64,000 nucleotides of DNA from Ignavibacteriota bacterium (GTDB lineage: Bacteria > Bacteroidota > Ignavibacteria > UBA10030 > UBA6906), in the NCBI GenBank assembly GCA_963801355.1, contig CAWDEM010000008.1:800001-864000 (forward strand). The letters are read 5' to 3'. The notes beneath the pieces are model-generated. The model was not told the origin of the DNA. It saw only the letters and a program-made list of their open reading frames with translations, and did no database searches. Below are positions 2,998-45,700 of this stretch, in pieces (the stretch's first letter is position 1; each line of letters begins with the position of its first letter). Made by a program: the position numbers and the translations under genes.

Positions 2998-3077
2998 GCC
3001 TAACGATCGCGGCTCACCGGCGCCGCTCACGTCTTTGTTCAATTCCGCGCGGCGTCAGGTGCAGCCGCTGGTTAGGT
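2998..3077. repeat. Complete attC site (80 bp)
   Basis: GCCTAAC...GTTAGGT (RYYYAAC/GTTRRRY) with imperfect arms GCGGCTCACCGGCGCCGC / GCGGCGTCAGGTGCAGCCGC; the stop codon of the upstream gene lies in the core. Confidence 0.8.
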
Positions 3078-3689
3078 TGCCGCCTTTGCTGCCTCCTGCG
3101 GAAATCCCTTGAACCTCCCAATGACTACGATAATGGCATATATGGAAAATGCAATTGAGAGTGCTAGGAAGGTCCATGTAGCGAAACCACCTACAGTGAG
3201 CGCAATGTGAAATAGATCGCCTCTAAAGCCTGTAGCAAATCCAATGGTTTCACATACTAAGTCAAAAGTAGGTCTCAAACACAGCAACATGAAGAGAAAT
3301 CCAATGAGAAAAGCGTTACTAGAGAGTTTCCGTTGAAGAACGTAAACGCCAACTGCAATGCTCAAAAGATCGAAAAAGTAAGGCGAGATAGTCATGATCA
3401 ACTGGCTCCATTCGTTGGTGAAGCCCTCTGATTTGATCCACGCCCCACCAGTCTCTCCAGCCCAAAACCTAGGAATGAGTTTGACTTCGACAATCTGAGC
3501 ACCAACAAGGTATGCGCCAAGCAGATGGCTCAATTCATGTATAGGCGCGTAGACGAAATACCACAGTATCGGAATGGTAGACATGCACGCCACCATCGTT
3601 TGTTGTTTCCAGGTTCCCCTTAGGTAGAGCACAAGAAGGGGAGCAACGACGGTGAAGAGTATTTCGAAAGTGATCAGTAGATGGTTCAT
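3072..3689 (-). CDS. Membrane metallopeptidase-like protein (M50B-like), gene cassette
   Basis: Multi-TM protein, HELSH zinc motif, distal 'GD'; flanked by the perfect 14-bp IR GTTAGGTTGCCGCC (3071-3084) / GGCGGCAACCTAAC (3696-3709). Confidence 0.7.
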   Translation of the reverse strand: MNHLLITFEILFTVVAPLLVLYLRGTWKQQTMVACMSTIPILWYFVYAPIHELSHLLGAYLVGAQIVEVKLIPRFWAGETGGAWIKSEGFTNEWSQLIMTISPYFFDLLSIAVGVYVLQRKLSSNAFLIGFLFMLLCLRPTFDLVCETIGFATGFRGDLFHIALTVGGFATWTFLALSIAFSIYAIIVVIGRFKGFPQEAAKAAT

Positions 3690-3702
3690 GAAAATGGCGG
3701 CA

Positions 3703-3728
3703 ACCTAACGCGGCTCACCTGCGCCGCG
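3703..3728. repeat. attC-like half site
   Basis: ACCTAACGCGGCTCACCTGCGCCGCG; 18 nt identical to 5621-5638. Confidence 0.65.
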
Positions 3729-3884
3729 AAGACGGTCGTGCATATTGAAAACGGTCAACTCTGCCCTGAGGCACCTGTCGACCGAGCTGCAACTCCATTC
3801 TGTACCCACCCACTGTAGCAAGAAACCTCCCCATCCCTCTGACGAAGAAGTCTCTCTATTTGTCCCATTATCCTCTCTGTCAAA

Positions 3885-5575: not shown

Positions 5576-5607
5576 GACAGTGTCCTCCCTGACTATCTGA
5601 GACTGCC

Positions 5608-5637
5608 ACCTACCGTCCGGGGCTCACCTGCGCCGCG
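5608..5637. repeat. attC-like half site (degenerate core ACCTACC)
   Basis: ACCTACCGTCCGGGGCTCACCTGCGCCGCG. Confidence 0.55.
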
Positions 5638-5674
5638 ATCTCAATTGTGCACATTGAAGGAACAACTTCAAGGT

Positions 5675-6044: not shown

Positions 6045-6917
6045 TCATCGCAACAACAAGAGCCGCTTGGTTTCCATATGCGATCCCGCTTGCATCCTGT
6101 AGAAGTATACTCCGCTCGATAGCCCAACCCCATCGAACTTCACATCATGAAAACCTGCCTTCATCTCGCCATTGACGAGTTGCGCGACCTGCTGGCCGAG
6201 GGTGTTGAAGATTGTCAAGATCACGTGCGAACGACTGGGCAGGCCGTAGCGGATCGTAGTCGAGGGGTTGAAGGGGTTGGGGTAGTTCTGATGCAATTGA
6301 AAATCCCCCGGCTGCGTTTTGTTGTCTGACACGTGGAGCGATGTTCCGTATTCCTTGCCGTTGATTCGAGCGTAGAGGAGAGCCGACCTATAGGGCCATC
6401 CGGTTTCAACGAACTCCCTGACGAGCCCGAAGTCGTATCCATAACGCAGTGATTGCCCAGTCCAGCCCCCGCTTACAACTATAGTGGGAACACCTAACAC
6501 GGTATCAGGGCGTGTGCCAGCGTACCACCAGAGAGGGACGGTGGACTCGTGTGTTGAGTCGATGTACCTGCACACGTTGCCTGACGCAGAATCCAACCGG
6601 TATAAGCCCGATGCAATCGACGACTCACAATATAAAGGTTTATCACTTTCCTTAAGAAATAAAGAATACTTCACCCCATTTTGCATAACCGTATCCGAGA
6701 CTATTCGGAGCCACATGTAACATATGTGGAGGGGTGGATTTGCAATATAGTTTCCCCATTCAAATTGCCATTCATCACCGACATGCGTGGGGAAGAACGC
6801 GCATAGAGAATCGGGAGAGACACGCTGCGCCGGCGAAGAGGCACTGCAAAGGACGAATACGAAGCCAACTGCGACGAACCAGCGTCGTATTGCAGACCGA
6901 GAGGTTCCCCCTTTCAT
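6045..6917 (-). CDS. Secreted protein with T9SS type-A sorting domain (start placed at MKGGTS)
   Basis: C-terminal 'QNYPNPFNPSTTI...LSSGVYFYRM...KRLLLLR'; GGAGGAGG RBS before 6917; the longer ORF-track start runs through an attC half site. Confidence 0.85.
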   Translation of the reverse strand: MKGGTSRSAIRRWFVAVGFVFVLCSASSPAQRVSPDSLCAFFPTHVGDEWQFEWGNYIANPPLHICYMWLRIVSDTVMQNGVKYSLFLKESDKPLYCESSIASGLYRLDSASGNVCRYIDSTHESTVPLWWYAGTRPDTVLGVPTIVVSGGWTGQSLRYGYDFGLVREFVETGWPYRSALLYARINGKEYGTSLHVSDNKTQPGDFQLHQNYPNPFNPSTTIRYGLPSRSHVILTIFNTLGQQVAQLVNGEMKAGFHDVKFDGVGLSSGVYFYRMQAGSHMETKRLLLLR

Positions 6918-6990
6918 ATTCCCTCCTCCAGAGGACATAAGAATGTACGCTGCCATTTCGGTAGTGTCAAATAGCAGTGCGCAGTCTCCT

Positions 6991-7023
6991 GCCGGCGTCA
7001 GGTGCAGGCGGGGGTCAGGGCGC
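6991..7023. repeat. attC-like half site (degenerate core GTCAGGG)
   Basis: GCCGGCGTCAGGTGCAGGCGGGGGTCAGGGCGC. Confidence 0.55.
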
Positions 7024-7278
7024 TGATGGCTCCATAATCTGTCTGACGATGTCCGCATGACCCCACAGGGTACTGAGTTTGAACCTCTTCCCCATGACTA
7101 CTATCTCTATGCCATCAGGTGTTGACTGGCTAGCGTTTGAAGCGGCTCCGATGACAGCTAGAAGCGTACCAAAAATGAAAGTCTTCGGCAGACACCACAT
7201 TGTGTCGCTGATAGTGACAGGTTGACTCGGTTCAACAAACCTAATCGTTTTAGGAATTTCGGCCTCATGAAGCATGAC

Positions 7279-12335: not shown

Positions 12336-12623
12336 CTATGGACATTCCGGTAGGCTAAGAAGGTTGTTTGGGTGCAATCCGTCACTCTCGGTCTTCATGT
12401 ATTTGTAGCCGTACTGACTCGTGGCGACAATAACCCAAACCGATTTCCCGTTGACACTCACAAAGAACTGGTACGTGCCATCTTCGATACCTTTGATGGC
12501 TGCTTCTTGGGAGAGTTTCCAGCGTGTTCTATTGGCGTTGAACCCTCCAATATATAGGATTCGCTCGTGTGGGTTTGGTCGATCGCTTTTGTTGATACAC
12601 ATGATTGGGAGAGTCATAGCCAT
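12336..12623 (-). CDS. DUF3892 domain protein
   Basis: 'CINKSDRPNPHERI..IGG...W...QEAAI..IE.G...F.V...KY.KT..DG...NNLLSLPECP' family pattern; RBS GAGGGGG before 12623. Confidence 0.85.
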   Translation of the reverse strand: MAMTLPIMCINKSDRPNPHERILYIGGFNANRTRWKLSQEAAIKGIEDGTYQFFVSVNGKSVWVIVATSQYGYKYMKTESDGLHPNNLLSLPECP

Positions 12624-12956
12624 GACAGAGCCCCCTCTGAGATGTGCAAAATGTGGAGTTAGTGGAATGCTATCGAACTGCCATATACATATATACCGAA
12701 GGTGGGCTTGTCTTGGACACATTCAACCACAATAATTAAACTGTGACAGTACCCGACGTTGGACCCGATTGCCTCGCAGATCGCGCTGCCAATGAAATTA
12801 CCAAGGCCCATAGAGTTCTCCCCCTTTGTCATCTGTGCATAAGGATTGAACGCGACTGTTCCTGAGAATCCTCTAACCAATGGATAATGAGTATTTCCGA
12901 AGCAATGGTGCGCCGATTCACAAAACTCGAACTGCGATTGGAGCCGAAAGGCGTTA

Positions 12957-13919
12957 TCACCCTTTCATTGTTGCAGAGTCCTTGATGGCGGCTTCCATTG
13001 TCCGAGAGGCAAGGGCCTTCTCTACCCGGCGAAACGTTTGTTCGAAGAAATCCGGCTCTATCTGGCGAGCCGAAGACAGACTCCCAAGAACAGATCGTAG
13101 ATCGACCAAGTCAGCTACTTCAACATTCGGGATAGCATTGAGTTTCTTCAGGATTCTTTGGCGTATTCGATTCGGAATCCTCAGTTCGGCGGCAGGACTG
13201 ATCGCCGTTCCCGTCACAACCTTGTAGTGTCTCTTGGAGTGACGGTGACTCTTGGAGGCCTTCAAGCGGAGACCTATACGGTTCAGAAGACGATCCACGG
13301 TCAAGCAGACCGACGCCGGAATCGGATTTGGCGAGGTAAACGTCATGTCATCAACGTATAGCGAAAATGACATGCCTTGGGCGATCGCAAACTCAGAGAA
13401 TGCATCAAAAGTTCGCGAGTACGCCCAATAGGCAATCGACTGACTCAGCGCGCTCCCTGTTGGAACATGATCTTCATATGATGCGATCTTCGTCATGAGG
13501 TGGGCCACATCTACATCCATCAGCAATCTATAGCGGAAGAATCGAAAGATATGCTCGCTTCGACAGTTCGGAAAGAATTGCTCTACGTCCACTGTCAGCG
13601 AATGGACACGACCAAGATGGTGCTTCGCATTGTCAATACTGGAAATTCGCTTCCTTCCGGAGAACAGGTAGTTGGGAGGTTGGATGCGGGATAGAAGGAT
13701 ATGAATCCTCTGATGAACCCGCTTGAGAGAACCAAGTGGCTCCTCGATGCGACGAGGCTTTCTCCCCTTTTCTTTCTTTGTGAAGACCCTGTAGAGCTTG
13801 CTTGAGGAAAGCGCAGGAAAGTCTCTCTGAGAAACGCCGAGTAGTCTGGCGAGTTTTCGCTTGTTGCGCAGTCGGAAAAAGGGGCTACGATCTATTTGAT
13901 AGGTCACTTGCCCCGGCAT
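12957..13919 (-). CDS. Retron-type reverse transcriptase
   Basis: Region X 'NAKHH' (NAxxH), 'DVEQFFP', 'VPTGSALS', catalytic 'YVDD', region Y 'VTG'; 320 aa with no maturase or fused domain. Confidence 0.92.
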   Translation of the reverse strand: MPGQVTYQIDRSPFFRLRNKRKLARLLGVSQRDFPALSSSKLYRVFTKKEKGRKPRRIEEPLGSLKRVHQRIHILLSRIQPPNYLFSGRKRISSIDNAKHHLGRVHSLTVDVEQFFPNCRSEHIFRFFRYRLLMDVDVAHLMTKIASYEDHVPTGSALSQSIAYWAYSRTFDAFSEFAIAQGMSFSLYVDDMTFTSPNPIPASVCLTVDRLLNRIGLRLKASKSHRHSKRHYKVVTGTAISPAAELRIPNRIRQRILKKLNAIPNVEVADLVDLRSVLGSLSSARQIEPDFFEQTFRRVEKALASRTMEAAIKDSATMKG

Positions 13920-14196
13920 CTTCTATCCGTTGCAGGAACCGGATGGCTGTTTTCCGCGTGAAGGCCTTCACATTTCTGAATCTTCTGCCTTTGTCAAGCT
14001 CTTCGGCGAAAAAGAGAAGCGAAGCCGATGTTGTTTTGAAAACACGTGCATACCTGCGGATGATCTCAAGCGAGGGTTCCTTTTTCCCTGCTTCGATTTC
14101 GGATAGGTAGCTTGGCGAGATTCCAAGCTCAGCGGCCATATCGACCGACTTCAGGTCATGCAATACACGCAACAGACGAAGCGCCTCATGAAGCAC
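13885..14196 (-). CDS. XRE-family HTH protein (retron-associated)
   Basis: 'MAAELGISPSYLSEIEAGKKEPSL' HTH; GGAGGT RBS with GTG start; overlaps the RT start by 35 nt. Confidence 0.9.
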   Translation of the reverse strand: MLHEALRLLRVLHDLKSVDMAAELGISPSYLSEIEAGKKEPSLEIIRRYARVFKTTSASLLFFAEELDKGRRFRNVKAFTRKTAIRFLQRIEDAGASDLSNRS

Positions 14197-14240
14197 GAAG
14201 TACCTCCGGAGTAATGAACTGTAGAAGGTAGGTTAGGGAG

Positions 14241-14372
14241 TTAGTTGCCAATGAACTTGATGAGCGCTCTAACGGAAAGCAACAAGATATCCACAAGTTC
14301 CTGCCTGTGCTTCCACATCAGCCTTCTCACCCTTTTCAGGGCAACACGGTGGAGCAACGTTGCGTCCTTCAT
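14241..14372 (-). CDS. 43-aa small protein, candidate retron effector (not in ORF track)
   Basis: AAGGAGGT-6 nt-ATG; MKDATLLHRVALKRVRRLMWKHRQELVDILLLSVRALIKFIGN*. Confidence 0.8.
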   Translation of the reverse strand: MKDATLLHRVALKRVRRLMWKHRQELVDILLLSVRALIKFIGN

Positions 14373-14702
14373 GATCTTACCTCCTTCCCACCCACAAGCC
14401 CAATCCACCATGGATGAGCCGGGGCGTCACTTTGGAAGGAGAGGAGGCTCTGCCGCGTTCGCTCCCTATCCTATTGAGTGGTGCTCATTTCACTTTGAGC
14501 ACCACTCCGACGACAACTGATCCCAGTATGCGGGCGTATATGCAATGCGATCTGCACTTGCAGACATACGTACCGAGCGTCACTTGTTGCCGGAAGTGTC
14601 TGAGCTTAGAACATCACTAAGCTCCCGCGCATCAGGATACTCCCGATGCACCCTTAGGCGGGTTCGTGTTGACCCCGCGCAGTGAACGTCCTTTCGCAAC
14701 GT
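14373..14702 (-). ncRNA. Retron msr/msd-containing structured leader RNA (boundaries approximate)
   Basis: Perfect 12-bp hairpin 14476-14507 (candidate msd stem); further hairpins at 14551-14564, 14602-14624 and 14629-14649; lies directly upstream of SP-HTH-RT. Confidence 0.7.
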
Positions 14703-14708
14703 TGAGAC

Positions 14709-14759
14709 AACATACACAATGATTCTGACAATTGCAAATAATATTCGCTGTCAGCGAAT
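14709..14759 (-). promoter_or_regulatory. Candidate retron promoter and palindromic operator
   Basis: TTGCAA(14732-14737)-17 nt-TATGTT(14709-14714); perfect palindrome ATTCGCTG-T-CAGCGAAT at 14743-14759. Confidence 0.5.
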
Positions 14760-26265: not shown

Positions 26266-29103
26266 CTAATCCCCCCCATCATCGAAGTGTAAGTCTGCAT
26301 CCTGCAACTTCATCTCAAGGTCATTCGGGTCAAAAGATACATCCCAGTTCCATTTGCCAAAACCACCGTGTTGATTGACAGCCTTGCACCACTCATTCAA
26401 GAAGACTCGCTTCGTTTTGTCTTGCTGCTTGTCCTGTCCCTTGGTTTCAAGAATGAGATAATCACCTGTTTTGCGCCTAATTATGAAGTCAGGATAGTAC
26501 TTCCGAACTACACCGTCATGGCTATAGTGGATGGCAAAACCGATGTGGTCGTTCTTCACAAATGAGTCAACTACCACGCTATCATTGATGGTTTTTGCTT
26601 CGAGATACTCCCAATCACTGTCCACTACAACAAAATTGATATGCGTCTTTGGAAGTGGAGCATTGCGCTTGCTCGTCCACCACGGTCGCAGGTCGTTGGT
26701 CGAGCGAATGGGATGCTCCTTGTCAAACACTGGAGTAAGTTCGGCCGTATTCTCGGCACGAATTTCATTCCAGATATGTTGAATCACTTTGTTCATGTTC
26801 AGCATAATCAGTATGCGCCTGCGGGCATCATCTTCATTGAATAGAGGGTTCTTTATCCTAATCCTGTCGGAGTAGATGAACTGCTCTATCACACCTATAA
26901 GTTGAATTAGAAATGCTTCTTTGCTCCCCTTCCAATCAGGTTTCCTTTCAGAATTGTAGATCGTTGACGCAATCCTAAACACGATAGACTGCAAACGGAA
27001 CTTGGTGCCAATCTCTTTCAAGTCAATTTCAGTGAGTGCGGCGGGGTTCGGTTTTCCCGCAATGATGGCAGCAAGCTCTGCCTCTGTTATGGCGTCGTAC
27101 GGGTCGAGTTCAAGCTGTCTGACTTTGCCCATATCCAGCGAGAGCTTTGGCTTATAGACATGGTCAATACGCAGGATATTCGGGAAAGAAATCTCATGCG
27201 CAACCTTTTCGCTTACAGGTTCAATCTTTGTTTTCGGTGGTGGCGGTGGTGGTGGAGGCCCACCTTCACCCCCCTCATGAGGAAGGAATGTGAACGGCAC
27301 TCCAAATATGTTTACATATTCTGCCTCAAATAAGCCGTCCTTTCCGACATCATAAGAAGTTCTCCGCAATCCACGGCCAACGACCTGTTCACACAGAAGC
27401 TGACTACTGAACGCCCGTAAACCCATGATGTGCGTAACGGTCTTGGCATCCCACCCCTCACTAAGCATCCCAACTGAGATTATGTTGTGCAGTTGTTCTC
27501 CGAGTTCTCCAATCCTGCCAACGGTATTGACTGTCAAACGAACAATCTCTGCCTGTTGCTTCTTCGTCAACTTCTTTGCCTTAGGAGTCTCAACCTCGTC
27601 TTCGTCGTCGTTTTCTTCCACGGTACTCAGTTCGATTTCCTCTGTTTGAGCTTCCGCCTTTTCCAAGACGCTGCTGTCAATCTGCAATGTTCTTTTCGGG
27701 TCGCACAAGTCTCCTAACCCAGCAACTGCCAGCAGGAAGGCATCTTTGTCGAACGAGTACTTCAATCGTCCTGACGTGGACGTTGTGTTTGCCACCGTAA
27801 TCATCACAGGTGGCACTTCATGACCTACCCTTTCCCACTCATCCTTTGTTGCCTTCCAGTCCTTGCCAAGAAGCAGGTAAGCATTCCTGATTAGGTCGGG
27901 CAGCGGGTCGGTTTCCTCCGCCTTGCGGTTGATGTCGTCCTTGACTGTTTCATCCATGTAGATGTGATAAAGCCGAGAGCGCAAATCCTCGTCTACTCTT
28001 CCATCATCACGAATAACAACACGGGGTGTTTTGACAAGTCCTGATTCTATTGCGTCATTCAGTCCAAAATCGCTCACTATCCACGAGTAGAGGGCTTCCT
28101 CAGAGGCTTTCTTGCCTGATGGCGCAAATGGCGTTGCTGAGAAATCGAAGCATCGGAGAATTCCCCGTGTCCGGTGAATTCTATCCAACCCACCGACCCA
28201 GACGGTGCTCTCTTCGATGTCCTCTTTCTTCACACCTGCAATCTTACTCTCTGCTGGAACTCTCCACGCATGGTGTGCTTCATCGTTTATCACAAGTAGA
28301 TTCGATGCCGAAGACATATCTTCCAATACCTCTCGAACATAGGCCTCGTCGCTTTTGGCACCTCGTTTATCAACACCTTTCTTCTTGGCAATTCTTTCTT
28401 CGCTATCCCAAGCCAAGGCATGCCAGTTAGTGATCCTGATTCTCCCTTGTCGCAGAGTTTCCATCAAACTTGAAGGGACGACGTTGAATGCCTCGTAGAA
28501 GTTTCCCTTGTCATACGGATTCAGTACACACAGACGATTACGAACCGTCAACCCCGGTGCAATCACGAACACATTCTTCGAAAAGCGCTTGTCCCTTGCA
28601 TTGGCGACCTTATTGAGCACCTGCCATGCAATGAGCATACTCATCACAATGGTCTTTCCAGACCCAGTTGCCATTTTGTTACACCAGCGGGAAAAACCTC
28701 CGCCGTCACTTGGGATTACTATTCCCGTCTTTTCGGACTCTGGTGCCTCGGTCAGCCAAATCAGGGTTTCGATTGCTTCCAACTGACAGAAGAAAAACTT
28801 CGTGTCCTTCCGCTGTTCAGGGTCTTGCCAGTGTTGCAGCAACCGTTTGGTTACCCCTGTCACCCCTGCGTAGCCCTCCTCGCGCCAATGCTTGACTCGC
28901 GGACGGATATCATTCACAAGTGGTATCGGAATGAAGACGCCGGGGTCGTCAAATCCTCTGGAATTCTCAGTCGCAATAATGTAACCCGCGGGTCTTCGTT
29001 CTCCTTCGTGAAGGATGAATTCACGAGTCTCCCGAACATACTCCCAATATCTCTGTGGTTCTTCGTACGGCGAATTGATTATGAGCTTGTTTATTGTTTT
29101 CAT
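26266..29103 (-). CDS. res: Type III restriction enzyme Res subunit (BPTD_3080-like)
   Basis: 'MATGSGKT', 'NDEAHH', 'FSATP', 'MLSEGWD', 'QVVGRGLR' and C-terminal 'PDF...ILETKG' nuclease motif. Confidence 0.92.
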   Translation of the reverse strand: MKTINKLIINSPYEEPQRYWEYVRETREFILHEGERRPAGYIIATENSRGFDDPGVFIPIPLVNDIRPRVKHWREEGYAGVTGVTKRLLQHWQDPEQRKDTKFFFCQLEAIETLIWLTEAPESEKTGIVIPSDGGGFSRWCNKMATGSGKTIVMSMLIAWQVLNKVANARDKRFSKNVFVIAPGLTVRNRLCVLNPYDKGNFYEAFNVVPSSLMETLRQGRIRITNWHALAWDSEERIAKKKGVDKRGAKSDEAYVREVLEDMSSASNLLVINDEAHHAWRVPAESKIAGVKKEDIEESTVWVGGLDRIHRTRGILRCFDFSATPFAPSGKKASEEALYSWIVSDFGLNDAIESGLVKTPRVVIRDDGRVDEDLRSRLYHIYMDETVKDDINRKAEETDPLPDLIRNAYLLLGKDWKATKDEWERVGHEVPPVMITVANTTSTSGRLKYSFDKDAFLLAVAGLGDLCDPKRTLQIDSSVLEKAEAQTEEIELSTVEENDDEDEVETPKAKKLTKKQQAEIVRLTVNTVGRIGELGEQLHNIISVGMLSEGWDAKTVTHIMGLRAFSSQLLCEQVVGRGLRRTSYDVGKDGLFEAEYVNIFGVPFTFLPHEGGEGGPPPPPPPPKTKIEPVSEKVAHEISFPNILRIDHVYKPKLSLDMGKVRQLELDPYDAITEAELAAIIAGKPNPAALTEIDLKEIGTKFRLQSIVFRIASTIYNSERKPDWKGSKEAFLIQLIGVIEQFIYSDRIRIKNPLFNEDDARRRILIMLNMNKVIQHIWNEIRAENTAELTPVFDKEHPIRSTNDLRPWWTSKRNAPLPKTHINFVVVDSDWEYLEAKTINDSVVVDSFVKNDHIGFAIHYSHDGVVRKYYPDFIIRRKTGDYLILETKGQDKQQDKTKRVFLNEWCKAVNQHGGFGKWNWDVSFDPNDLEMKLQDADLHFDDGGD

Positions 29104-29107
29104 GGGG

Positions 29108-31687
29108 TCACATGCGGATGATTTTCAGGCTTTCAATCCCGCGGGCATCAATAATCTTTACGGCGACACGTTTGCCCGGCGTGAACAGCAGCGATTCAGT
29201 GCCGCTGAACGCTTCAATCTTGTCTTCGTCAATTTCCGCTCTTAGGTTCTTTGCAAGTGTAGCCCACCCCTCCTTTACCCCTGCCATCGGGAAGAACACC
29301 TGTGATGGCAATAAACTTCTTCCATCATAATCAGAGTCCAGCATCCACATAGCGATATCGCCCTGCCCACCACTCTCTACCGTACCATTAGTCGGATTGT
29401 AGTAGTCGAAGCCGAGTACCTTTACCCTGTATTTGCCTTTGTCTTCTCCCCGTTTGACTTCTTCCATTCGTACATCGGGCTGGCCGATGAGCCAGAAGCT
29501 TTCGTTGCTGCTTCGCTTCTTTTTCAAGTCATCGGTCTGTAGGTCGGCATTCATCTGTGCCTTTAGAAGTGTTACCCCATGCCAATTCATTTCGTCAATA
29601 TCCTTGGCAGCCTCTTCATCGAATTGGAAGGCACAGAACAACACCATCTGTGGCTTTGGCTTTAGGTGTTCTGCTTCGTCTAAAGCCAACTCGACAGTCC
29701 TTTGTTCCAAAGGCGCATGTTCGGGGCCGAAACAGATTACCACGTGCTGCGGTTGTTGAAATACAGTTGGGTCTGTCTTCTCAAAGAGATTCTTGGAGTC
29801 AAGTTCGACTATAGTCTCTGCCTCTGCCTGCAAGTAGCGTGTGCCCACCATCGGCTCGACTCTGGAAAACCTAATGAGCTTACCACCTTTAGCTCTGACG
29901 CCTGCACGAAACAATTCATCACGCCATTCATTTTGACGTAGGGTCTCTCCGCTTCTCGCAACGGTATTATCGGCTCTACCAGCCGTGCTGCTTTCAACGT
30001 CGTCAAATGACCGCGCGACGGGAGCGGGCACTGCTTCAACTGTGAATGGGCCTGTCACCCTTATTCTCTTGCTGTCTATCAATGGTTTGTCATACAGGAT
30101 TTCTTGAGACGCTGGTTCATTGTTGGCGATGCATTTCATCGTCACGTGAGTTACACTTCTGTACGAGAAACCACTGCTTACTCCTTCGTTCGGGTGCGCC
30201 AATTCAAAATAGTCAAAGTTGTCAGTTATTAGGCTTTGCTTCGCAAGGGCTACGGCTACTCGTGAAGTGTCGCATGTAATCCATCTCCTGCCCCATTTTT
30301 CTGCAACAGATGCCGTTGTGCCGCTTCCACAAGTGATATCTAAGACTAAGTCTCCCGGGTCAGAAGTCATAAGAAGACACCGTTGCACTATCTCCTTGTT
30401 TGTTTGAACGACGTAAACTGGGTTCGCTGCCCCGCCGAAACCTGACCATAAGTTTGTCAGCGCTCGATAGGGAAAATCATCGAAATAGGATATGAACCGA
30501 ATGCTGTTGTCGGTCGCCACAACTCTGTTCGCCTTTAAAACGTTCTGTATTCCGTCTGGAGTTGTTCCCCACCACCTATTTCCAGAGTCGTATTTTCTCC
30601 CCCTATACTCTATCGTGAATTTGGAGCCGGGGCCGGGCTTAGTCATCAAGACCGTCATGAAAGGCTTTGCACCTTTCGGCAAGGGTACAGCTTTGGTGGA
30701 TTCTTGCTCCGTCATTGGCCTCCGTTTCCCGCCACTTTCTTCAATCAAAGTGTAACCAGAGTCATAGGCATCGCTCTTCTTTTCAAATAGTGGTCTGTAC
30801 TTGACGTGTGCCGAATCCTTTGCATACCAAAGAATGTAGTCCAACACACTGCCTACGCGGTTTACAGCCCGTAACCCACCAGCGGCTTTCGAGAAACAAA
30901 CAAGGGACAGGAAATTGTCAGAGCCAAAAACCTCATCCAAGATGTTCTTCACCAGATGAACATTCTCATCACTAATCTGGACGAAAACGCATCCACTTTC
31001 ATGAAGAAGGTCTCTTGCCAATAGTAATCGGTCACGCAGATAACTGAGGTAACTGTGAATGCCCAACTCCCACGTATCCCTGAATGCTTTTATCATTTCA
31101 GGCTCCGCCGTCAAATCCTCATCTTTACCATCCTTCACATCACGCCTGTTTACGAATGGTTGGAAGTTGCTGCCATATTTGATGCCATAAGGTGGATCAC
31201 AATACACCATCTGCACCTTGCCACCCATGGCTTCCTTTTCCAAAAGAGAGTTCATTACCAATAGACTGTCGCCCGCAATTAGGCGATTGCTCCAATTTTC
31301 TTTGTGCCTATAGAACTCAATTGCCTCACGCATAGGCATCCGGTGCGCCTCAAATAGAGAAATCTGTCCTTTGTCGTCTGGTTTTTTGCAGACGGATTCA
31401 ATAATCCGCTTCGGGTCAATCCGCTCGTGAACGTGCAGACTCACCGTGGGCACCTCAAAACTCGTGTGTTCGGCTTTGCCAGCCCATTCCAGTCGCGGGT
31501 CAAGGTGGGGATCATACTGGTATTTCTTCTTTTTCAATCCAACGTTGTCACTATGGGCGTCCACCAATCCGACAGGTGGGTTGTTCAGCCGCTGTTTGTC
31601 CTTATGCTCATAAGCCACGATAGGTTTATGAGAACTCGGTACTTTGGTGCGCGGCATTTTCACTCTGGGAGATTTCTTCTTTGCCAT
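29108..31687 (-). CDS. mod: Type III Mod subunit, adenine DNA methyltransferase
   Basis: 'DPPYG' precedes 'VLDITCGSGTT' (beta class); 4 bp from res. Confidence 0.92.
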   Translation of the reverse strand: MAKKKSPRVKMPRTKVPSSHKPIVAYEHKDKQRLNNPPVGLVDAHSDNVGLKKKKYQYDPHLDPRLEWAGKAEHTSFEVPTVSLHVHERIDPKRIIESVCKKPDDKGQISLFEAHRMPMREAIEFYRHKENWSNRLIAGDSLLVMNSLLEKEAMGGKVQMVYCDPPYGIKYGSNFQPFVNRRDVKDGKDEDLTAEPEMIKAFRDTWELGIHSYLSYLRDRLLLARDLLHESGCVFVQISDENVHLVKNILDEVFGSDNFLSLVCFSKAAGGLRAVNRVGSVLDYILWYAKDSAHVKYRPLFEKKSDAYDSGYTLIEESGGKRRPMTEQESTKAVPLPKGAKPFMTVLMTKPGPGSKFTIEYRGRKYDSGNRWWGTTPDGIQNVLKANRVVATDNSIRFISYFDDFPYRALTNLWSGFGGAANPVYVVQTNKEIVQRCLLMTSDPGDLVLDITCGSGTTASVAEKWGRRWITCDTSRVAVALAKQSLITDNFDYFELAHPNEGVSSGFSYRSVTHVTMKCIANNEPASQEILYDKPLIDSKRIRVTGPFTVEAVPAPVARSFDDVESSTAGRADNTVARSGETLRQNEWRDELFRAGVRAKGGKLIRFSRVEPMVGTRYLQAEAETIVELDSKNLFEKTDPTVFQQPQHVVICFGPEHAPLEQRTVELALDEAEHLKPKPQMVLFCAFQFDEEAAKDIDEMNWHGVTLLKAQMNADLQTDDLKKKRSSNESFWLIGQPDVRMEEVKRGEDKGKYRVKVLGFDYYNPTNGTVESGGQGDIAMWMLDSDYDGRSLLPSQVFFPMAGVKEGWATLAKNLRAEIDEDKIEAFSGTESLLFTPGKRVAVKIIDARGIESLKIIRM

Positions 31688-35159: not shown

Positions 35160-36446
35160 TCAAGCTGATGTGCGCGAGCGCTCCATCTGCAACAACTCTT
35201 CGACGAGAACTGTCAGCTTGGCGATAGACGGACGACCCTTCTTCCCCTTCTTTGGGAGTTTTGCGTTTGCACGCGTTTGTGCGGGGCCAGTAATCATCGC
35301 CGCGATTTGGGGATGGTTCAGCGTATCCAATATCCCCCACAAATTGCTTGGTGCAAGATGAGCATATATCTCGGTCGTCTTCGTGTCAGAATGCCCCATC
35401 ATTTTGCCCACTGAGAACAATGGCACACCATTCGTTGCGAGATTGCTCGCGAATGAATGCCTTAGATCGTGAAACCGTAGCTGAGGATTCAGACCTGCTT
35501 TGCGTACCCATCGTTTGAAGCATCTTCCCAGATAGCTTTCATCCATAACCTTCAACTGTCCGTTGCGTAATTGCGGGAACATCAAGCTGTTCTTGTCTCT
35601 GACATTCTTAGCTCTGACTTTCAAGACTTCGTACGCAGTGTCATTTAACGGAACAATCCGCTCACGGCTCGACTTCGTCGTAAAACCAGAATTATTTTCA
35701 TCTTTGAGTGTGTTGCGCACCTTGAGTACTCGACGCTCCAAATCCACGGCATTGGCACGTAAGTTTCGAAGTTCACCACTTCGAAGGCCTGTGTTGAAGG
35801 CGGTGATTATAAGCCGATGCATCGTTTTCCGGTTAACCACAGCATCACGTTCGTGTTGCTTGAGCGACTTGTCAACGTTTAGCCTGATGGAATCCCTTTG
35901 GGATTCCGCCGCCATCGTATCCATCAACTTGGCAAACTCGTTTACAGTCAGCCAGTTCGGTGTACGCTCAACGAGCTTAGGTTTCTTGATTGACCGCCAG
36001 ACATTGGTCTCAACATATCCCCACTTGCGAGCAGATTCGAATGCAGACGCCATTGCGGTGTAGATTCGCCGTGCGGTAGCTGCACTGGTCTTGCTCTGCT
36101 TTTCGTCCATGAAATCCTGAATGTCTTTGACCTTGATGTCGCGAATGCGCCGATCACCAATGCACCGGATGAAAACGTTGAAGCACGTTTGACAGTTCTT
36201 GTATGTCTTTAGCTTGTGTTGCTGGCGACTATGGTTGAGATACTCAGCACTGAATTCCTTGATGGATAAGTTCTTCCTCTTCGATCTTGCTTGAACTTGA
36301 CCACCGAGGAATTTCATTACCCAAGTCTTTGCATCAGCCTTCTGTTTGGAACCTGTGCTTACTTTTCTTCGCTTGCCATTTTCGTCGACGTACCAGAGGT
36401 AGAGTACTCCGCTTGCATGGCGGGACAACGAATGAGATGGTTTCAT
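35160..36446 (-). CDS. int: Tyrosine recombinase / phage integrase
   Basis: N-terminal arm-binding segment, 'TGLRSGE', 'TKS', 'FHDLRHSF', 'MGHSD...TEIY'. Confidence 0.95.
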   Translation of the reverse strand: MKPSHSLSRHASGVLYLWYVDENGKRRKVSTGSKQKADAKTWVMKFLGGQVQARSKRKNLSIKEFSAEYLNHSRQQHKLKTYKNCQTCFNVFIRCIGDRRIRDIKVKDIQDFMDEKQSKTSAATARRIYTAMASAFESARKWGYVETNVWRSIKKPKLVERTPNWLTVNEFAKLMDTMAAESQRDSIRLNVDKSLKQHERDAVVNRKTMHRLIITAFNTGLRSGELRNLRANAVDLERRVLKVRNTLKDENNSGFTTKSSRERIVPLNDTAYEVLKVRAKNVRDKNSLMFPQLRNGQLKVMDESYLGRCFKRWVRKAGLNPQLRFHDLRHSFASNLATNGVPLFSVGKMMGHSDTKTTEIYAHLAPSNLWGILDTLNHPQIAAMITGPAQTRANAKLPKKGKKGRPSIAKLTVLVEELLQMERSRTSA

Positions 36447-36558: not shown

Positions 36559-36603
36559 CGGTTTAGGAAACCGTCGCTCTATCCATTACTGAGCTACGAG
36601 GGC
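36559..36603 (-). repeat. att core, right junction: displaced 5' half of tRNA-Arg
   Basis: tRNA 5' end through the anticodon arm, followed by non-tRNA sequence. Confidence 0.93.
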
Positions 36604-38737: not shown

Positions 38738-40798
38738 TTACCTCAGAAGCAACGACTTGCGCGTCTCCACAAAACCCAGTCCTGAACTGCGTAAAAGATC
38801 CGTTGCTCCGCTCCTGGAGTCATGCCCGACAGCTGCATTGGAGGGACGAACTTGTATCCTGTAGAAGTACACTCCACTCGGGAGACCATTCCCTTCAAAC
38901 TTCACATCATGGTACCCTGCCTCCCTTTCTCCATCCTGGAGAACTGCGAACTGCTGACCGAGGGCGTTGAACACGGTCAGGGTCACATGCGAACGATTCG
39001 TCAAGCTGTAGCTGAGCGTCGTTGACGGGTTGAAAGGGTTCGGGTAGTTCTGGTACAATATAGCCTGGACGGCCACTGTAGGCGGATCGTCATTCACCGA
39101 TGAAGTCTGATTACCCTTTAAGAGTTCAATTCCATTGCCCGTTCCCATGTTTCTGGAATATTGCATATGGAGACTATCGTTCCAGTGTTCATGCGTTCCA
39201 AGACTTGCGAGCACTGTGCCGTCGTTCTCCGGATCATATCTGATGCCGGCGGGCCAATTGGTGGTGTCGGCGGCCTGGTGAAGATAGTCATCGGTGGCAT
39301 TCATCTGGGGATACGTGCCTGCGCCCCGGGCCGCGGTCCACTCCGCCCGCAGAAAATCATACCCCACCGACTCAATCGCCAGCGGATCAAAAGACGCAAA
39401 TACCGAAGACATCCAATCGTTATTGAACGGTGCCATCATCCATTTCAATGGGAAGTGCAGCTCATAGTCGGTCGCCCACAACGCATCCATCAGATAGAAG
39501 AGGTTTTTCTTCCCCAGCAATTGATGCCCCATCAGATCCACCTGGACACGGTACATCCCGTAGTCCATACGATACGGAGTGTTTGGATACTCCTCCGGCG
39601 CCACCAACCCTCCGTGGAGGTGTGAGGCACTGGACCGTGTGTGCGATCCGAAGTGATTCTTGGCAAACATGGTCACGCCTCCCCGCTTATGCCCTTTCAG
39701 CATCGGGATATTGAGCAGGTATTCGGCTTTGTCGAAGACATCATAGAGCAGATCCTCGGTGATGGCTGTCCCCGTCGACCCACTCGATTTCAGAACGGTT
39801 CCTCTGTCAGAATACTTGATCTTTGCAGTGGTGCTCTTAACGGCCTTCTCTCTTCCCAGGTTCGTGTAGCCATCCGTGTCCAGGTAGTGGACATCAGGGA
39901 ACTCGGCGTGCCAGAGATCGTAGCAGTGTTTGTAGATATGCTTCATGGGATCGCCGACATAGATGTCCGCCTGAGCTACACCGACAACGTTCACCAATTG
40001 ACGCAACACCGAAAGAACAATGGCAGGAGATGTCTCAGAGACGGCATAGTACATGACGCCCGTGCGTGCACTGAGATCGGCGGTATTGAACTGGCCGCTC
40101 CAACTGCTCGTCGCATTCGTTTTGATGAAAACCTTCTCTCCTGATGTATATCCCACTGCTCCCTTTCCGCGGGTGGAGTTATGAAACCGGAAAATGGCAA
40201 CCCAGGCCGCGGAATCCGACGATGTGCCGGTCAACCTGCTGATGGCTGTCGACACCATCGTATCAATGACAGGCTGATTGTTGTTTTCGGGGCGATACCA
40301 TTCGTGGCTGACAACGGCCGGGGTGCAGTTTTCGTTTGTCGCCTCCGGACGGTGTATCCAAACGACTCTTCCCGGAAATATCCCGACGGCGGTCCCGATC
40401 GGTTGATTCCCCACCAGATGGAAGGTGGGTAGCTTGACATCATAGGCGTTTGCAGGATCATTGACGAGCGTATACGAGACGAACAGCCCCATCAATGCGA
40501 GCACAGACATAAACACTAGAGCCGGGATCGTCTGCTGCTTCTTCGCTTTTGCCCACAGCAAGAGCGACACACCCACGAAGAGGAGATATCCAATGAAGCT
40601 CGAGGCAAATGGCATTGCGGCACGTACACAAGGATAGGCAATACGGCTTGGCTTTGTGGCAACCCGAAAGATTATCCATGCGAGGGCCACCAAGCCGACA
40701 ATCGGTGCCAGGACCATTGCGAGACCGTGTGGCCTCTTCAGACCGACGAACTTGCCAGACTTAGGGCAAAAACGGAGATACTCTCTGAAGAATTTCAT
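38738..40798 (-). CDS. DUF362 domain protein with T9SS type-A sorting domain
   Basis: 'KPSRIAYPC', 'GIFPGRVVW', 'NIPMLKGH...GVT..AKNHFG' and C-terminal 'QNYPNPFNPST'. Confidence 0.85.
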   Translation of the reverse strand: MKFFREYLRFCPKSGKFVGLKRPHGLAMVLAPIVGLVALAWIIFRVATKPSRIAYPCVRAAMPFASSFIGYLLFVGVSLLLWAKAKKQQTIPALVFMSVLALMGLFVSYTLVNDPANAYDVKLPTFHLVGNQPIGTAVGIFPGRVVWIHRPEATNENCTPAVVSHEWYRPENNNQPVIDTMVSTAISRLTGTSSDSAAWVAIFRFHNSTRGKGAVGYTSGEKVFIKTNATSSWSGQFNTADLSARTGVMYYAVSETSPAIVLSVLRQLVNVVGVAQADIYVGDPMKHIYKHCYDLWHAEFPDVHYLDTDGYTNLGREKAVKSTTAKIKYSDRGTVLKSSGSTGTAITEDLLYDVFDKAEYLLNIPMLKGHKRGGVTMFAKNHFGSHTRSSASHLHGGLVAPEEYPNTPYRMDYGMYRVQVDLMGHQLLGKKNLFYLMDALWATDYELHFPLKWMMAPFNNDWMSSVFASFDPLAIESVGYDFLRAEWTAARGAGTYPQMNATDDYLHQAADTTNWPAGIRYDPENDGTVLASLGTHEHWNDSLHMQYSRNMGTGNGIELLKGNQTSSVNDDPPTVAVQAILYQNYPNPFNPSTTLSYSLTNRSHVTLTVFNALGQQFAVLQDGEREAGYHDVKFEGNGLPSGVYFYRIQVRPSNAAVGHDSRSGATDLLRSSGLGFVETRKSLLLR

Positions 40799-40956
40799 GC
40801 TCACTACCCTTCTCTTATGCAGATCATTTCGGTCGAACGGAACCCTGATCTGTTGCACACGTTCCCGCCGACCGCGACTCCTCCACAACGCACCGCAGGC
40901 AGGCATTAGATAATATTGGCCTAAAAAGAGGGAAAGTCAAGAAGAGCAAGTGCGCC

Positions 40957-42758: not shown

Positions 42759-45700
42759 TCAATTGCCCATGCGCACGACGATCCGATGCTTGATGAAATC
42801 GCGACCGAGAGGAATCACCCCGCCTTTCATTCGCTGCCCGTCCATTTCCACCCAGGAGATTCCCCGCTCGTAGTGTTCCGGATTCTCGACCTGTATTGCA
42901 TACACCGATTCACCGTGACGGTAGCTCATCTGGAAGCCATCCCACCATCCCGGAATGACCGGGGTGAAGCTCATGGTCTCTCCACGCACCTGAAGCCCCA
43001 GTATCTCTTCAACCCAAGTACGATACATCAACGCTGCCGAGCCTGTGTACCAGGACCAGCCACCCTTGCCTATCCTTCCGGGCAAGCGGTACACGTCAGC
43101 CGCGACCACATAAGGCTCAATACCGTAACGCCACACCGTTTCCGGATCGCGTGCATGCTCAATCGGGTTCAGTATGCGCATCATGTTCGCCGCACGGGTG
43201 CCATCCCCGCTCCGCGCGATGGCAATGGCGAGCCACAAGGCAGCATGGGTATACTGGCCTCCGTTCTCGCGTACACCCGGAGGGTATCCCTTGATATATC
43301 CTGGCGATAGCTCCGTCTTGTCAAAGGGAGGCTCAAAGAGAAGCACAAGCTTGTCTTCTTCGCGAACGAGATTCTTCCAGGCCGATTCCAGTGCTTTTTT
43401 CGCCCGGTCGCTGTCGGCAGCACCGCTGATCCAGGCCCAGGATTGCGGAATCGAATCGATGCGTGCTTCCTGATTTACCGAAGAACCGAGCGGGGTCCCG
43501 TCGTCGAAGGTCCCACGGAGATACCACTCCCCATCCCACGCAAAGCCTTCGACATGCTCAATCAAGATCTTCCGGTCTTGAAGATATGCCAGACTTAGAT
43601 CCGGCCTGCCCATCTCTGTAGACATCTCGGCCATGCCCTTCAGCACATCAACCAGGAACCACGCAAGCCAGACGCTCTCGCCCTTACCTGCGGCCCCTAC
43701 AAGATTCATCCCGTCATTCCAGTCGCCCGTTCCGATCAGGGGCAATCCGTGGGACCCTGACGTGTGGCCGCGCGTGACGGCACGCCGGCAATGTTCAAAG
43801 AGCGAGGCGTGTTCCGATGAGTTCCCCGGAGATTTCAGGCTCTCGTTCTGGTTTTTCTCCAGCGGTGGCGCATCGAGGAACCCGACCATCTCGTGGAGAA
43901 TTGAGACATCCCCCGTAATTCTGACGTAGTGCGCGGCGACGTATGGAAGCCAGAGGAGATCATCGGAGATCCGCGAGCGGATTCCCGCGCCACCCGGGAC
44001 ATGCCACCAGTGCTGGACATCGCCCTCCGTGAACTGGCGGCCTGCCGCGAGCAGAATGTGCGCTCGCGCCAGCCCGGGTTGCGCGTACAGCAAAGCCATC
44101 ACATCCTGCAATTGATCGCGGAAACCAAACGCACCACCTGACTGGTAGAAGCCCGAGCGTCCCCAGAGCCTGCAGGCGAGCGTCTGGTAGAGCAGCCAGC
44201 GGTTGATTAAAAAGTCAACGGCAAGTTCGGGAGTATGCACCTGAACCACGTCGAGCCGCTCGTTCCACCAGGCTTTCGTTTGCACGAGCGCGGCCTTAAC
44301 CACTGTATTCTCACGGTACGCAAGCACGAGCGCCCGGGCCTTGTTCAACGACGGGGCCTGACCGAGCACACACGTGATTTCCACATTCTCGCCAGGCGCC
44401 AAACGCACGGTGGTCTGCAATGCAGCGCAAGGGTCCAGGCCCGCTCCTGTCCTCCGGGAAAGCCCGGTGCGCTCCATCGCCGCCGGGTTTACCATCGAGC
44501 GGTTACGACCAAGAAACGCTGTGCGATCACCGGTGTAGGATTCCGCCGGCAGGCTCAGGGCCGCGAACGCCACACTGTCCGAAAAATCAGGATGGTAGTA
44601 GTTGTGCGCGATCATTGCCTCGACTTCGTCATCCCAGTCGGTCACGACGTGGTTCTGGGACGACTCCCGGAACTCGCCCAATGTCCATTCCACGTAGTAC
44701 GTCAGAGACAGCTTGCGTGGCCTGGCCGAGTCGTTTTTCAACAACAGGCGCTGGAGCTTCACCGGCTCGCCCCCCCCATCATCAACGGGCACGAAGACCG
44801 TCAGTTCGTGTTCGATACCGTGGCTGTTATGTTCGAATACCGAGTACCCCGCTCCATGTCTTGCGCGGTAGTCCGTTCCCTCGCGGATAGGTGAAGCGCA
44901 CGGCGTCCAGTAGGCTCCTGTTTCCTCATCGCGAATGTACAGTGCTTCGGAAGGTGGATCCGTCACCGGGTCGTTTGACCATTGTGTCAGGCGATTTCGC
45001 TGACTGTTGCCCTGCCAGGTAAACCCGGCACCTGTCTCGCTGATGAGTGTACCGAAGCCCGGGTTGGCAATGATGTTGACCCAAGGCATGGGCGTGTTCA
45101 TTCCCGGACCAAGATAGACAGCGTACTCATTCCCATCGGGAGTAAAACCGCCGATGCTGTTGAAGTAAGGAAGTTCCATGAAAGGGAGCGCAGCCGCGGG
45201 ATCACGGGAATCCCGTTTTGAAGCGATGGGCCCCGGTGTCTCGGGGATTTCAATCGAGACGCCCAATTGCTGCTGTAGAGTTCCACGAGCCGCCACCATC
45301 ACTGTACTTGCCACAGCCTGCAGCAGTGTGAGGTCTTCCTCCGGAATCATATCCGCGCTGCGCAAGAAGATTCCCCCAGGCCGGTCCACCCCGGTAGTGG
45401 CCGAATGCGATTGGATCAGTCGCTGGAGTTGTTCATGCAACGGGCGCTCGTAGCCACGGCTCTCTTCGTTCAGAATTACCAGATCGGTTGTGAACCCGTG
45501 CATGCGCCAATAGGTATGTGCCTGGAGCATCTGACGGACCAGGCTCATGTCCTCCACTTCGCCGATGGCGACAAGTGCAATCGGGACGTCGCCCGAAATC
45601 CCGTAGGTCCATAGGCCGGCCTGTCCCTTGCGGTTTTCTGCGATGCGTTCCGCCGCCGCGCGCAGGAGGAGATTCGGAAACAGCAGATGGCTCGCCAGCT

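Follow-up and report, generated by a model that had tools for sequence, protein, structure and literature searches.

The 64,000-nucleotide (nt) stretch of Ignavibacteriota DNA analysed here (the window) carries on its minus strand, at positions 12957–14759, a complete retron that consists of a leader of approximately 330 nt, an open reading frame (ORF) of 43 amino acids (aa), a helix–turn–helix (HTH) protein of 103 aa and a reverse transcriptase (RT) of 320 aa. The locus is almost certainly a type VI retron, i.e. a member of an anti-phage system class that has already been described, and we consider it quite probable that it is intact and serves phage defence by abortive infection, in a way that we propose to be similar to Retron-Vpa2 of Vibrio parahaemolyticus. 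As a find it adds little: the class is known, is detected by PADLOC and is on record in Bacteroidota, and its mechanism has been dissected in two preprints. It is, however, a clean and complete example from a lineage distant from the models compatible with Escherichia coli, with an unusually short small protein (SP).

Type VI retrons were defined in 2020 by the association of an RT, an HTH protein of the Cro/C1 type and a small protein (Mestre et al. 2020, PMC7736814). An earlier note on this DNA, made from its letters alone, had described a compact ‘type VI-like’ retron with the order non-coding RNA–small protein–XRE-HTH–RT and had proposed a PADLOC search. When this was run, the type-specific models covered both larger proteins nearly from end to end, RT_VI with 256.9 bits (E = 5e-77, model positions 1–277 of 279) and HTH_VI with 96.5 bits (E = 2e-28, positions 1–91 of 92), the runner-up for the RT being RT_III-A with 115.4 bits. 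The SP and the leader are also kept in related loci, as detailed below; the layout is thus upheld, and the label can be sharpened from type VI-like to type VI proper. The HTH gene, which the note had correctly placed upstream of the RT gene and overlapping with it, matches Pfam HTH_3 as well (E = 4.4e-13) and runs 35 nt into the start of the RT ORF. With its 103 aa, its product falls within the 91–110 aa reported for the Cro/C1-type HTH proteins encoded upstream of, or overlapping, type VI RTs (Mestre et al. 2020, PMC7736814). Of 160 other loci that were collected (80 from species-representative genomes and 80 from metagenomes), 148 have an HTH homologue directly upstream of the RT.

The RT itself is present in the genome as a single copy. 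Canonical retrons such as Retron-Eco1 (Ec86) or Sen2 possess an RT with NAxxH and VTG motifs and, upstream of it, a structured template RNA. In an alignment of 23 homologues, the NAxxH, YVDD and VTG motifs already noticed in the 320-aa ORF prove to be conserved, with N97, A98 (at least 90%) and H101 for the first, Y188-V-D-D191 being invariant for the second and T236-G237 being invariant for the third; NAxxH in region X, VTG in RT7 and YxDD are retron RT hallmarks (Mestre et al. 2020, PMC7736814). The PTG that stands in place of the usual PQG had been regarded as a deviation. It is indeed there, but P153-T154-G155-S156 varies little or not at all among the 23 aligned sequences, and is therefore a normal trait of this RT family rather than an oddity of one copy. 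Of 2884 candidates from a search of 5.8 billion proteins with the RT, only 46 matched at E <= 0.001, and apart from the protein itself the best of these are 53–55% identical. The closest relatives of the locus are sequences from peat, wetland and sediment metagenomes, and small shares of the stretch also occur in sequencing runs of such metagenomes. By RT identity, the nearest named genomes are metagenome-assembled genomes (MAGs) of Chitinispirillaceae (47%) and Fibrobacteria (44%), followed by a Bacteroidota MAG (43%) and a Terriglobia MAG (39%), and most of the remaining related loci come from gut Clostridia with RTs that are approximately 35% identical.

A host from the Fibrobacterota–Chlorobiota–Bacteroidota (FCB) group, which the earlier note had set beside studied examples that are proteobacterial, is not new for such a system, because type VI retrons have already been recorded in Bacteroidota. 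These provide 28 of the 93 type VI candidates in a 2026 survey. In addition, one type VI RT sublineage named in the preprint on Retron-Sen3 is largely restricted to Bacteroidetes (bioRxiv 10.64898/2026.04.27.721009). Among 200 other genomes sampled from the phylum, RT_VI gave a match in 20 at E <= 1e-20, a threshold at which other retron types can score as high, and in none of the four genomes of the same family.

Of the proteins encoded by the locus, the one with the HTH domain is best conserved (60% mean column identity); it has a highly conserved recognition region and an Arg7 that is invariant in 15 sequences. The corresponding exchange R7D in the HTH protein of Retron-Vpa2 was reported to be toxic (Zhang et al., bioRxiv 10.1101/2025.10.22.683967).

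That the unannotated 43-aa ORF upstream of the HTH gene is a real gene, as the note had suspected, is borne out by 18 unique loci in which both the ORF and its ribosome-binding site are conserved. It starts with the ATG at 14372, preceded by an AGGAGG-type ribosome-binding site, and in every close locus a short ORF ends 29–63 nt ahead of the HTH start. A hidden Markov model (HMM) from ten such ORFs retrieved 22 sequences at E < 0.01, i.e. the ten seeds, which match by construction, and twelve more, and an AGGAG-type ribosome-binding site lies ahead of each homologous ORF. The homologues are 39–56 aa long; their N-terminal half is basic, a single Trp is invariant and the C-terminal helix is hydrophobic. 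The SP encoded here has an isoelectric point of 11.7, ten Lys/Arg residues and a hydrophobic tail. These features fit the type VI SP toxins as described in the two preprints on Vpa2 and Sen3. The earlier statement that the locus has no enzymatic effector stands, with the correction that the small protein is the expected effector, such proteins being the toxins in Vpa2 and Sen3. Pfam, PADLOC and NCBIfam hold no family for the SP, and the search of 5.8 billion proteins returned only the protein itself, which says little because small ORFs are rarely called. Type VI small proteins were assigned to clusters 2075, 2760, 3272 and 3897 or left unclustered (Mestre et al. 2020, PMC7736814). The SP occupies the expected place upstream of the HTH gene but is shorter than the members of the named clusters (75–79 aa), which makes a place in the ‘Large’ lineage, with its unclustered SPs, more likely for the locus.

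At the level of the RNA, the leader is as rich in hairpins as the note had claimed. Its minimum free energy of –208.5 kcal/mol (z = –4.0) is lower than that of all 100 shuffled versions, and its structure is conserved in homologous loci, whose possession of a conserved leader the note had made a point on which its reading depended. A covariance model from homologous leaders, which the note had also asked for, was seeded with this locus and one related locus. With filters off, it detected the element at the syntenic position in every one of the 16 other loci searched (E < 0.05 in 12), and with default filters only eight matches in 98 sources. Since the filters-off search also gave spurious weak matches, pair counts were limited to the 14 rows at E <= 0.25 from these 16 loci, the window's own locus being excluded. 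In these rows, 88.5% of the cells are paired, as compared to 55.2% in shuffles and 41.1–48.5% when partners are slid along the alignment, with the reservation that this alignment is fitted to the structure, which somewhat inflates pairing, and that the slid controls share this bias only partly. Changes on both sides occur in 35 of 36 pairs, the covariation score is 0.651 versus 0.179, and none of 500 shuffles reaches any of these measures.

Two helices stand out in this analysis (for all positions, see table 1). The perfect 12-bp stem of hairpin E, with its 8-nt loop, had been seen before and is now found to be conserved, all 12 pairs showing changes on both sides with 91.7% of the cells paired. 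Likewise, the helix in which the Shine–Dalgarno (SD) sequence of the SP gene pairs with an anti-SD arm in an upstream pyrimidine tract comprises eight pairs, every one of them changed on both sides (89.2% of the cells paired). The entire block from hairpin E to the start codon assumes the same architecture in six homologous segments that were folded independently. Further upstream, hairpins B and C together account for 16 pairs, 12 of them with compensatory change, in an RNAalifold analysis of ten sequences. Hairpin D appears as a single long hairpin in all nine loci folded (58–89 nt, z from –0.09 to –3.68, below –1.4 in seven); its sequences cannot be aligned across loci, as expected for a template stem, and hairpins D and E together are the candidate template for reverse transcription.

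The SP module is enclosed by a long-range pairing between two inverted repeats, IR1 in the leader and IR2 directly behind the SP stop codon (–18.3 kcal/mol), the arms of which change together between loci. Pairs from the same locus have a mean of –15.2 kcal/mol versus –10.2 kcal/mol for cross pairs, and the arm from the same locus is the best of all partners in 7 of the 17 loci and among the top three in 11. This pairing adjoins the 3' partner of the very short a1/a2 pair (14575–14579 with 14460–14464) that had been put forward in the earlier note. That candidate has to be dropped: its pairing is not conserved, because its two partners are not complementary in the three closest homologues. Pairing of a conserved 5' motif with the bases following IR1 was also considered as a 5'-end pairing and rejected, since its 4–6 bp are too short and too variable.

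This RNA also contains a short direct repeat: the 8 nt that form the loop of hairpin E are present again, unpaired, between the anti-SD arm and hairpin F. A repeat of at least 6 nt occurs at matched positions in 13 of the 17 unique loci, and one of at least 7 nt in nine; the word itself varies from locus to locus, with both copies changing together. In a derangement control, matched repeats were found in a mean of 3.5 loci and in at most 11 in 20,000 trials, a comparison that does not give a true probability, because related loci are not independent. As in Vpa2, one copy is thus located in the template loop and the other in the riboregulator. For the 7-nt repeat of Vpa2 it was proposed that a DNA copy of the first element pairs with the second and thereby frees the ribosome-binding site (10.1101/2025.10.22.683967). 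Paired change of the two copies is what this DNA-to-RNA model predicts, and thus supports the proposed DNA-triggered, riboswitch-like step. The co-varying copies would then be evolutionary evidence for a pairing that the authors of the Vpa2 study only proposed.

The candidate promoter lies immediately upstream of the leader and shows the same geometry in the 11 nearest loci. Transcription is predicted to start near 14702, and in these loci approximately 450–520 nt ahead of the HTH start, a distance to be compared with the approximately 470-nt RNA of Vpa2 (10.1101/2025.10.22.683967). From the position of the promoter we infer one structured transcript that combines the template, the sequence that codes for the SP and the sequestered SP ribosome-binding site. 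A sigma-70 scan listed no minus-strand promoter here, and the proposed one, matching 8 of 12 consensus positions, is put forward for its conservation; promoters of the host lineage may follow a consensus other than that of sigma-70. Two short contigs of a wetland RNA library cover 14253–14438 and 14399–14523 with 98–99% identity. They are a weak hint of expression, because they reveal neither ends nor levels and such libraries may contain DNA. One of them departs from the window at 14523, inside hairpin D, and continues with 49 letters unlike it; the template stem thus seems to differ in a near-identical relative.

Just upstream of the –35 element there is a 17-bp palindrome, the core of which, TTCGC-N5-GCGAA, has a single match in the window where 0.08 would be expected. 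All 11 nearest loci exhibit the same succession of palindrome, 4–8 nt, a TTG-type –35 element, a 17-nt spacer and a TA...T –10 element. Of the 126 unique loci for which the collected DNA extends far enough, 48 have the exact core at a distance of 492–616 nt upstream of the HTH gene, including loci of Clostridia and Gammaproteobacteria whose RTs are only about 32–35% identical to the present one, and in 42 of these 48 a promoter-like site follows within 2–10 nt, as against 4.9% at random positions. Because of this invariance at the sequence level beside a promoter, together with the highly conserved recognition region of the HTH protein, the palindrome is probably the operator of the latter. 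Whether it could be the operator of type VI HTH proteins across Bacteroidota and relatives, Bacillota and Pseudomonadota is a more tentative matter, which we would not yet call probable. If so, the HTH protein would autoregulate the hybrid RNA at the level of transcription, which would add a third layer of control to the published translational and post-translational ones. The main text of both preprints mentions neither a palindrome nor an operator or autoregulation, and a literature search by title or abstract gave nothing on palindrome or promoter control by a retron HTH protein. The element also resembles a weak terminator. In the Sen3 lineage, an 18-nt ‘5'-conserved stem-loop’ at the 5' edge of the RNA has been described as essential for defence (10.64898/2026.04.27.721009); it may be the same promoter-proximal DNA site read as RNA.

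How could such a locus work? Retron-Vpa2 established the concept of a hybrid RNA, an SP toxin, an HTH protein that acts as a brake on reverse transcription and a DNA-dependent de-repression of the SP (10.1101/2025.10.22.683967). Taking the toxicity of the SP, the roles of the HTH protein, the synthesis of DNA and its triggers by analogy from the two preprints, we propose that the promoter drives a transcript of approximately 500 nt, running roughly from 14702 to 14197, as a hybrid RNA in which hairpins A to F would make up the non-coding 5' 330 nt and the 3' part would be the SP mRNA. At rest, the SP ribosome-binding site would be held in the 8-bp helix with the upstream pyrimidine tract, with the IR1–IR2 pairing closing the whole SP module, and the HTH protein, by analogy with Vpa2, would bind the RT and the RNA and hold down reverse transcription. 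Upon infection, phage recombination proteins or inhibition of RecBCD would lead to the accumulation of single-stranded DNA that the RT has copied from hairpins E and D; the copy of the hairpin E loop would pair with the second repeat copy beside the anti-SD arm and free the ribosome-binding site, such that the SP is translated and growth of the cell stops. We lean, if only slightly, towards such Vpa2-like translational control being the main switch.

In the portions of the Vpa2 preprint on which the comparison draws, the likeness extends over the order RNA–SP–HTH–RT, one transcript of approximately 470–500 nt with template and SP mRNA (predicted here), an SP ribosome-binding site placed in a helix, inverted repeats that close the SP arm, a short direct repeat shared by template loop and riboregulator, and a conserved Arg7 of the HTH protein. 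In contrast, the host belongs to another phylum, the SP has 55 aa there and 43 aa here (compared by length only), and the repeat is called highly conserved there, whereas its sequence varies between loci here. With type VI as defined by Mestre et al. (2020, PMC7736814), the locus shares the clade-3 retron RT, the Cro/C1 HTH protein of 91–110 aa and a small helical protein encoded upstream; that class includes two lineages named in the 2026 preprint (10.64898/2026.04.27.721009), 2760, which is restricted to Bacteroidetes, and the mixed ‘Large’ lineage, and it is in the 75–79 aa of the named SP clusters versus 43 aa that the present locus differs. Unlike the canonical retrons Eco1 (Ec86) and Sen2, the locus has no separate enzymatic effector, the predicted toxin being encoded inside the RNA, and the DNA product, according to the type VI model, switches the toxin on instead of holding it off.

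Several points weigh against the proposed working, in addition to the fitted alignment behind the pair counts. The direct repeat is missing in 4 of the 17 loci and the IR1–IR2 pairing in three, all of the latter being more distant ones. RNAalifold on plain MAFFT alignments gave no pairs for hairpin D or for the block from hairpin E to the start codon, probably because stems of unequal length are misaligned, which is why the covariance model and single-sequence folds were used instead. No Rfam family was found in the locus, either at gathering thresholds or at E up to 10. On the RT, Pfam RVT_1 scores just under its cutoff (28.4 versus 29.6 bits), and all NCBIfam retron models remain well under theirs. 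With its 43 aa, the SP is shorter than that of Vpa2 (55 aa) or those of the named clusters (75–79 aa), and the locus is known here from sequence alone, its nearest relatives having RTs of no more than 55% identity. In previous tests in E. coli, no DNA product was detectable for any of six type VI retrons, including one from Bacteroides fragilis.

The strongest competing explanation comes from Sen3, which revealed a second, post-translational mode of control in a study that also named the RT sublineages (10.64898/2026.04.27.721009). A type VI retron run in this way would produce DNA and SP constantly, the HTH protein would be an antitoxin that binds the SP, loss of RecBCD activity upon infection would free the toxin, and the RNA would be a scaffold rather than a switch. 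With Sen3 (cl2075), as portrayed in that preprint, the locus has in common the SP–HTH–RT order, an SP enclosed by IR1 and IR2, the latter immediately behind its stop codon, a sequestered ribosome-binding site and, at the 5' border of the RNA region, a short stem-loop-like element that is conserved, and the HTH protein being the most conserved one of the locus also speaks for this mode. Sen3 has the same layout and sequesters its ribosome-binding site, yet makes its SP constitutively (10.64898/2026.04.27.721009), so that RNA features alone cannot tell which mode of control is in use. What does argue for a difference is the co-varying direct repeat, a feature proposed for the Vpa2-type DNA-to-RNA switch, together with the SP itself, which has 43 rather than 79 aa and is without the long amphipathic C-terminal extension that was modelled as the interface with the HTH protein. 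Moreover, the Sen3 lineage consists mainly of Beta- and Gammaproteobacteria, and its 5' stem-loop was read as RNA, whereas the palindrome here is situated upstream of the predicted promoter. A structure prediction for a complex of the HTH protein and the SP (score 0.00) is evidence neither way. Overall, Sen3-like control appears rather unlikely to us.

An SP and an HTH protein that form a toxin–antitoxin pair, as they do in Sen3, on an island bounded by direct repeats and equipped with an integrase gene could also be an addiction cassette that keeps the island of approximately 34.5 kb in the genome, with phage defence being absent or secondary. Every type VI retron that was tested for defence gave phage protection, however, according to the published accounts; an RT with an intact active site and a template-like RNA are under selection across phyla, and the type III restriction–modification genes on the same island are as expected for defence cargo. 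This possibility therefore strikes us as improbable. Still less credible is a decaying or silent copy, i.e. genes that look intact in a system that no longer works in its host. It could be invoked in view of the weak match of the promoter to the sigma-70 consensus (8 of 12) and the lack of expression data from the organism itself, but there are no frameshifts or stops, the catalytic and family-invariant residues are all present, the ribosome-binding sites are intact, and RNA-library contigs extend over part of the RNA. The Vpa2-like working of an intact retron thus remains the explanation that we prefer.

Table 1. Features of the retron locus and its neighbourhood (positions in the window)
Feature	Position	Strand	Basis or remark
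DUF3892 gene	12336–12722	–	234 nt downstream of RT
Retron RT, 320 aa, type VI	12957–13919	–	PADLOC RT_VI E = 5e-77; conserved NAxxH/YVDD/VTG
Cro/C1-type HTH protein, 103 aa, GTG start	13885–14196	–	PADLOC HTH_VI, Pfam HTH_3
IR2, 3' arm of long-range pairing, directly after SP stop codon	14230–14240	–	duplex with IR1, –18.3 kcal/mol
SP, 43 aa, predicted toxin	14241–14372	–	conserved ORF with ribosome-binding site, 18 unique loci
SP ribosome-binding site, paired with upstream pyrimidine tract	14380–14388	–	folds, covariance
Hairpin F, inside SD:anti-SD helix	14389–14426	–	folds, helices 3–5 of covariance alignment
Copy B of the 8-nt direct repeat, between anti-SD and hairpin F, unpaired	14427–14434	–	repeat at matched positions
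Anti-SD arm, in pyrimidine tract 14433–14446	14434–14441	–	folds, covariance
IR1, 5' arm of long-range pairing	14462–14472	–	duplex with IR2
Hairpin E, perfect 12-bp stem; 8-nt loop = direct repeat copy A, 14490–14497	14476–14507	–	folds, covariance
Hairpin D, long, imperfect, variable in sequence and length	14508–14592	–	one long hairpin in each of nine loci
Hairpin C	14602–14624	–	leader fold, RNAalifold
Hairpin B	14627–14651	–	leader fold, RNAalifold
Hairpin A (weaker support)	14658–14678	–	leader fold; not recovered by RNAalifold
Predicted promoter, –35 14732–14737, 17-nt spacer, –10 14709–14714	14709–14737	–	same geometry in 11 nearest loci
17-bp palindrome, core TTCGC-N5-GCGAA, 6 nt upstream of –35	14743–14759	–	conservation in related loci
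D5_N/PriCT_1/DUF5906 primase–helicase, 914 aa	15492–18236	–	domains typical of integrated mobile elements and satellites
Type III restriction–modification pair, same island	26266–31687	–	PADLOC MTase_III E = 4e-143 for methyltransferase
Tyrosine integrase gene	35160–36446		just inside right repeat copy

At the larger scale, the retron resides on an integrative tRNA-Arg island of roughly 34.5 kb. It is flanked by 45-nt direct repeats (98% identical) at 2080–2124 and 36559–36603, which correspond to the 5' part of a tRNA-Arg(CCT) encoded at 2048–2124, whereas it is usually the 3' part of a tRNA that is duplicated. The partner of the type III methyltransferase on this island is a helicase/endonuclease with a ResIII domain and a weaker REase_III match. 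The primase–helicase gene is located directly upstream of the promoter region of the retron, beyond a 122-aa ORF without a family match. The DUF3892 gene on the other side was considered as a fourth component of the retron and rejected, because it is found in none of the other loci fetched.

Proteins with type IX secretion sorting domains, which agree with a host of the FCB group, are encoded both inside (6045–7058) and outside (38738–40906) the island. Near the 3' ends of these sorting-domain genes, a 209-nt repeat occurs at 6089–6297 and 38851–39059 (77% identical). In the left part of the island, G+C-rich direct repeats of two families (42–61 nt, 71–76% identical) are present at gene ends, one at 2501–2542, 3048–3089 and 6991–7032, the other at 3689–3749 and 5598–5658. 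Finally, a 3051-aa ORF on the minus strand (42759–51914) is found in a stretch of raised G+C content, 0.57–0.60 versus about 0.50 elsewhere.

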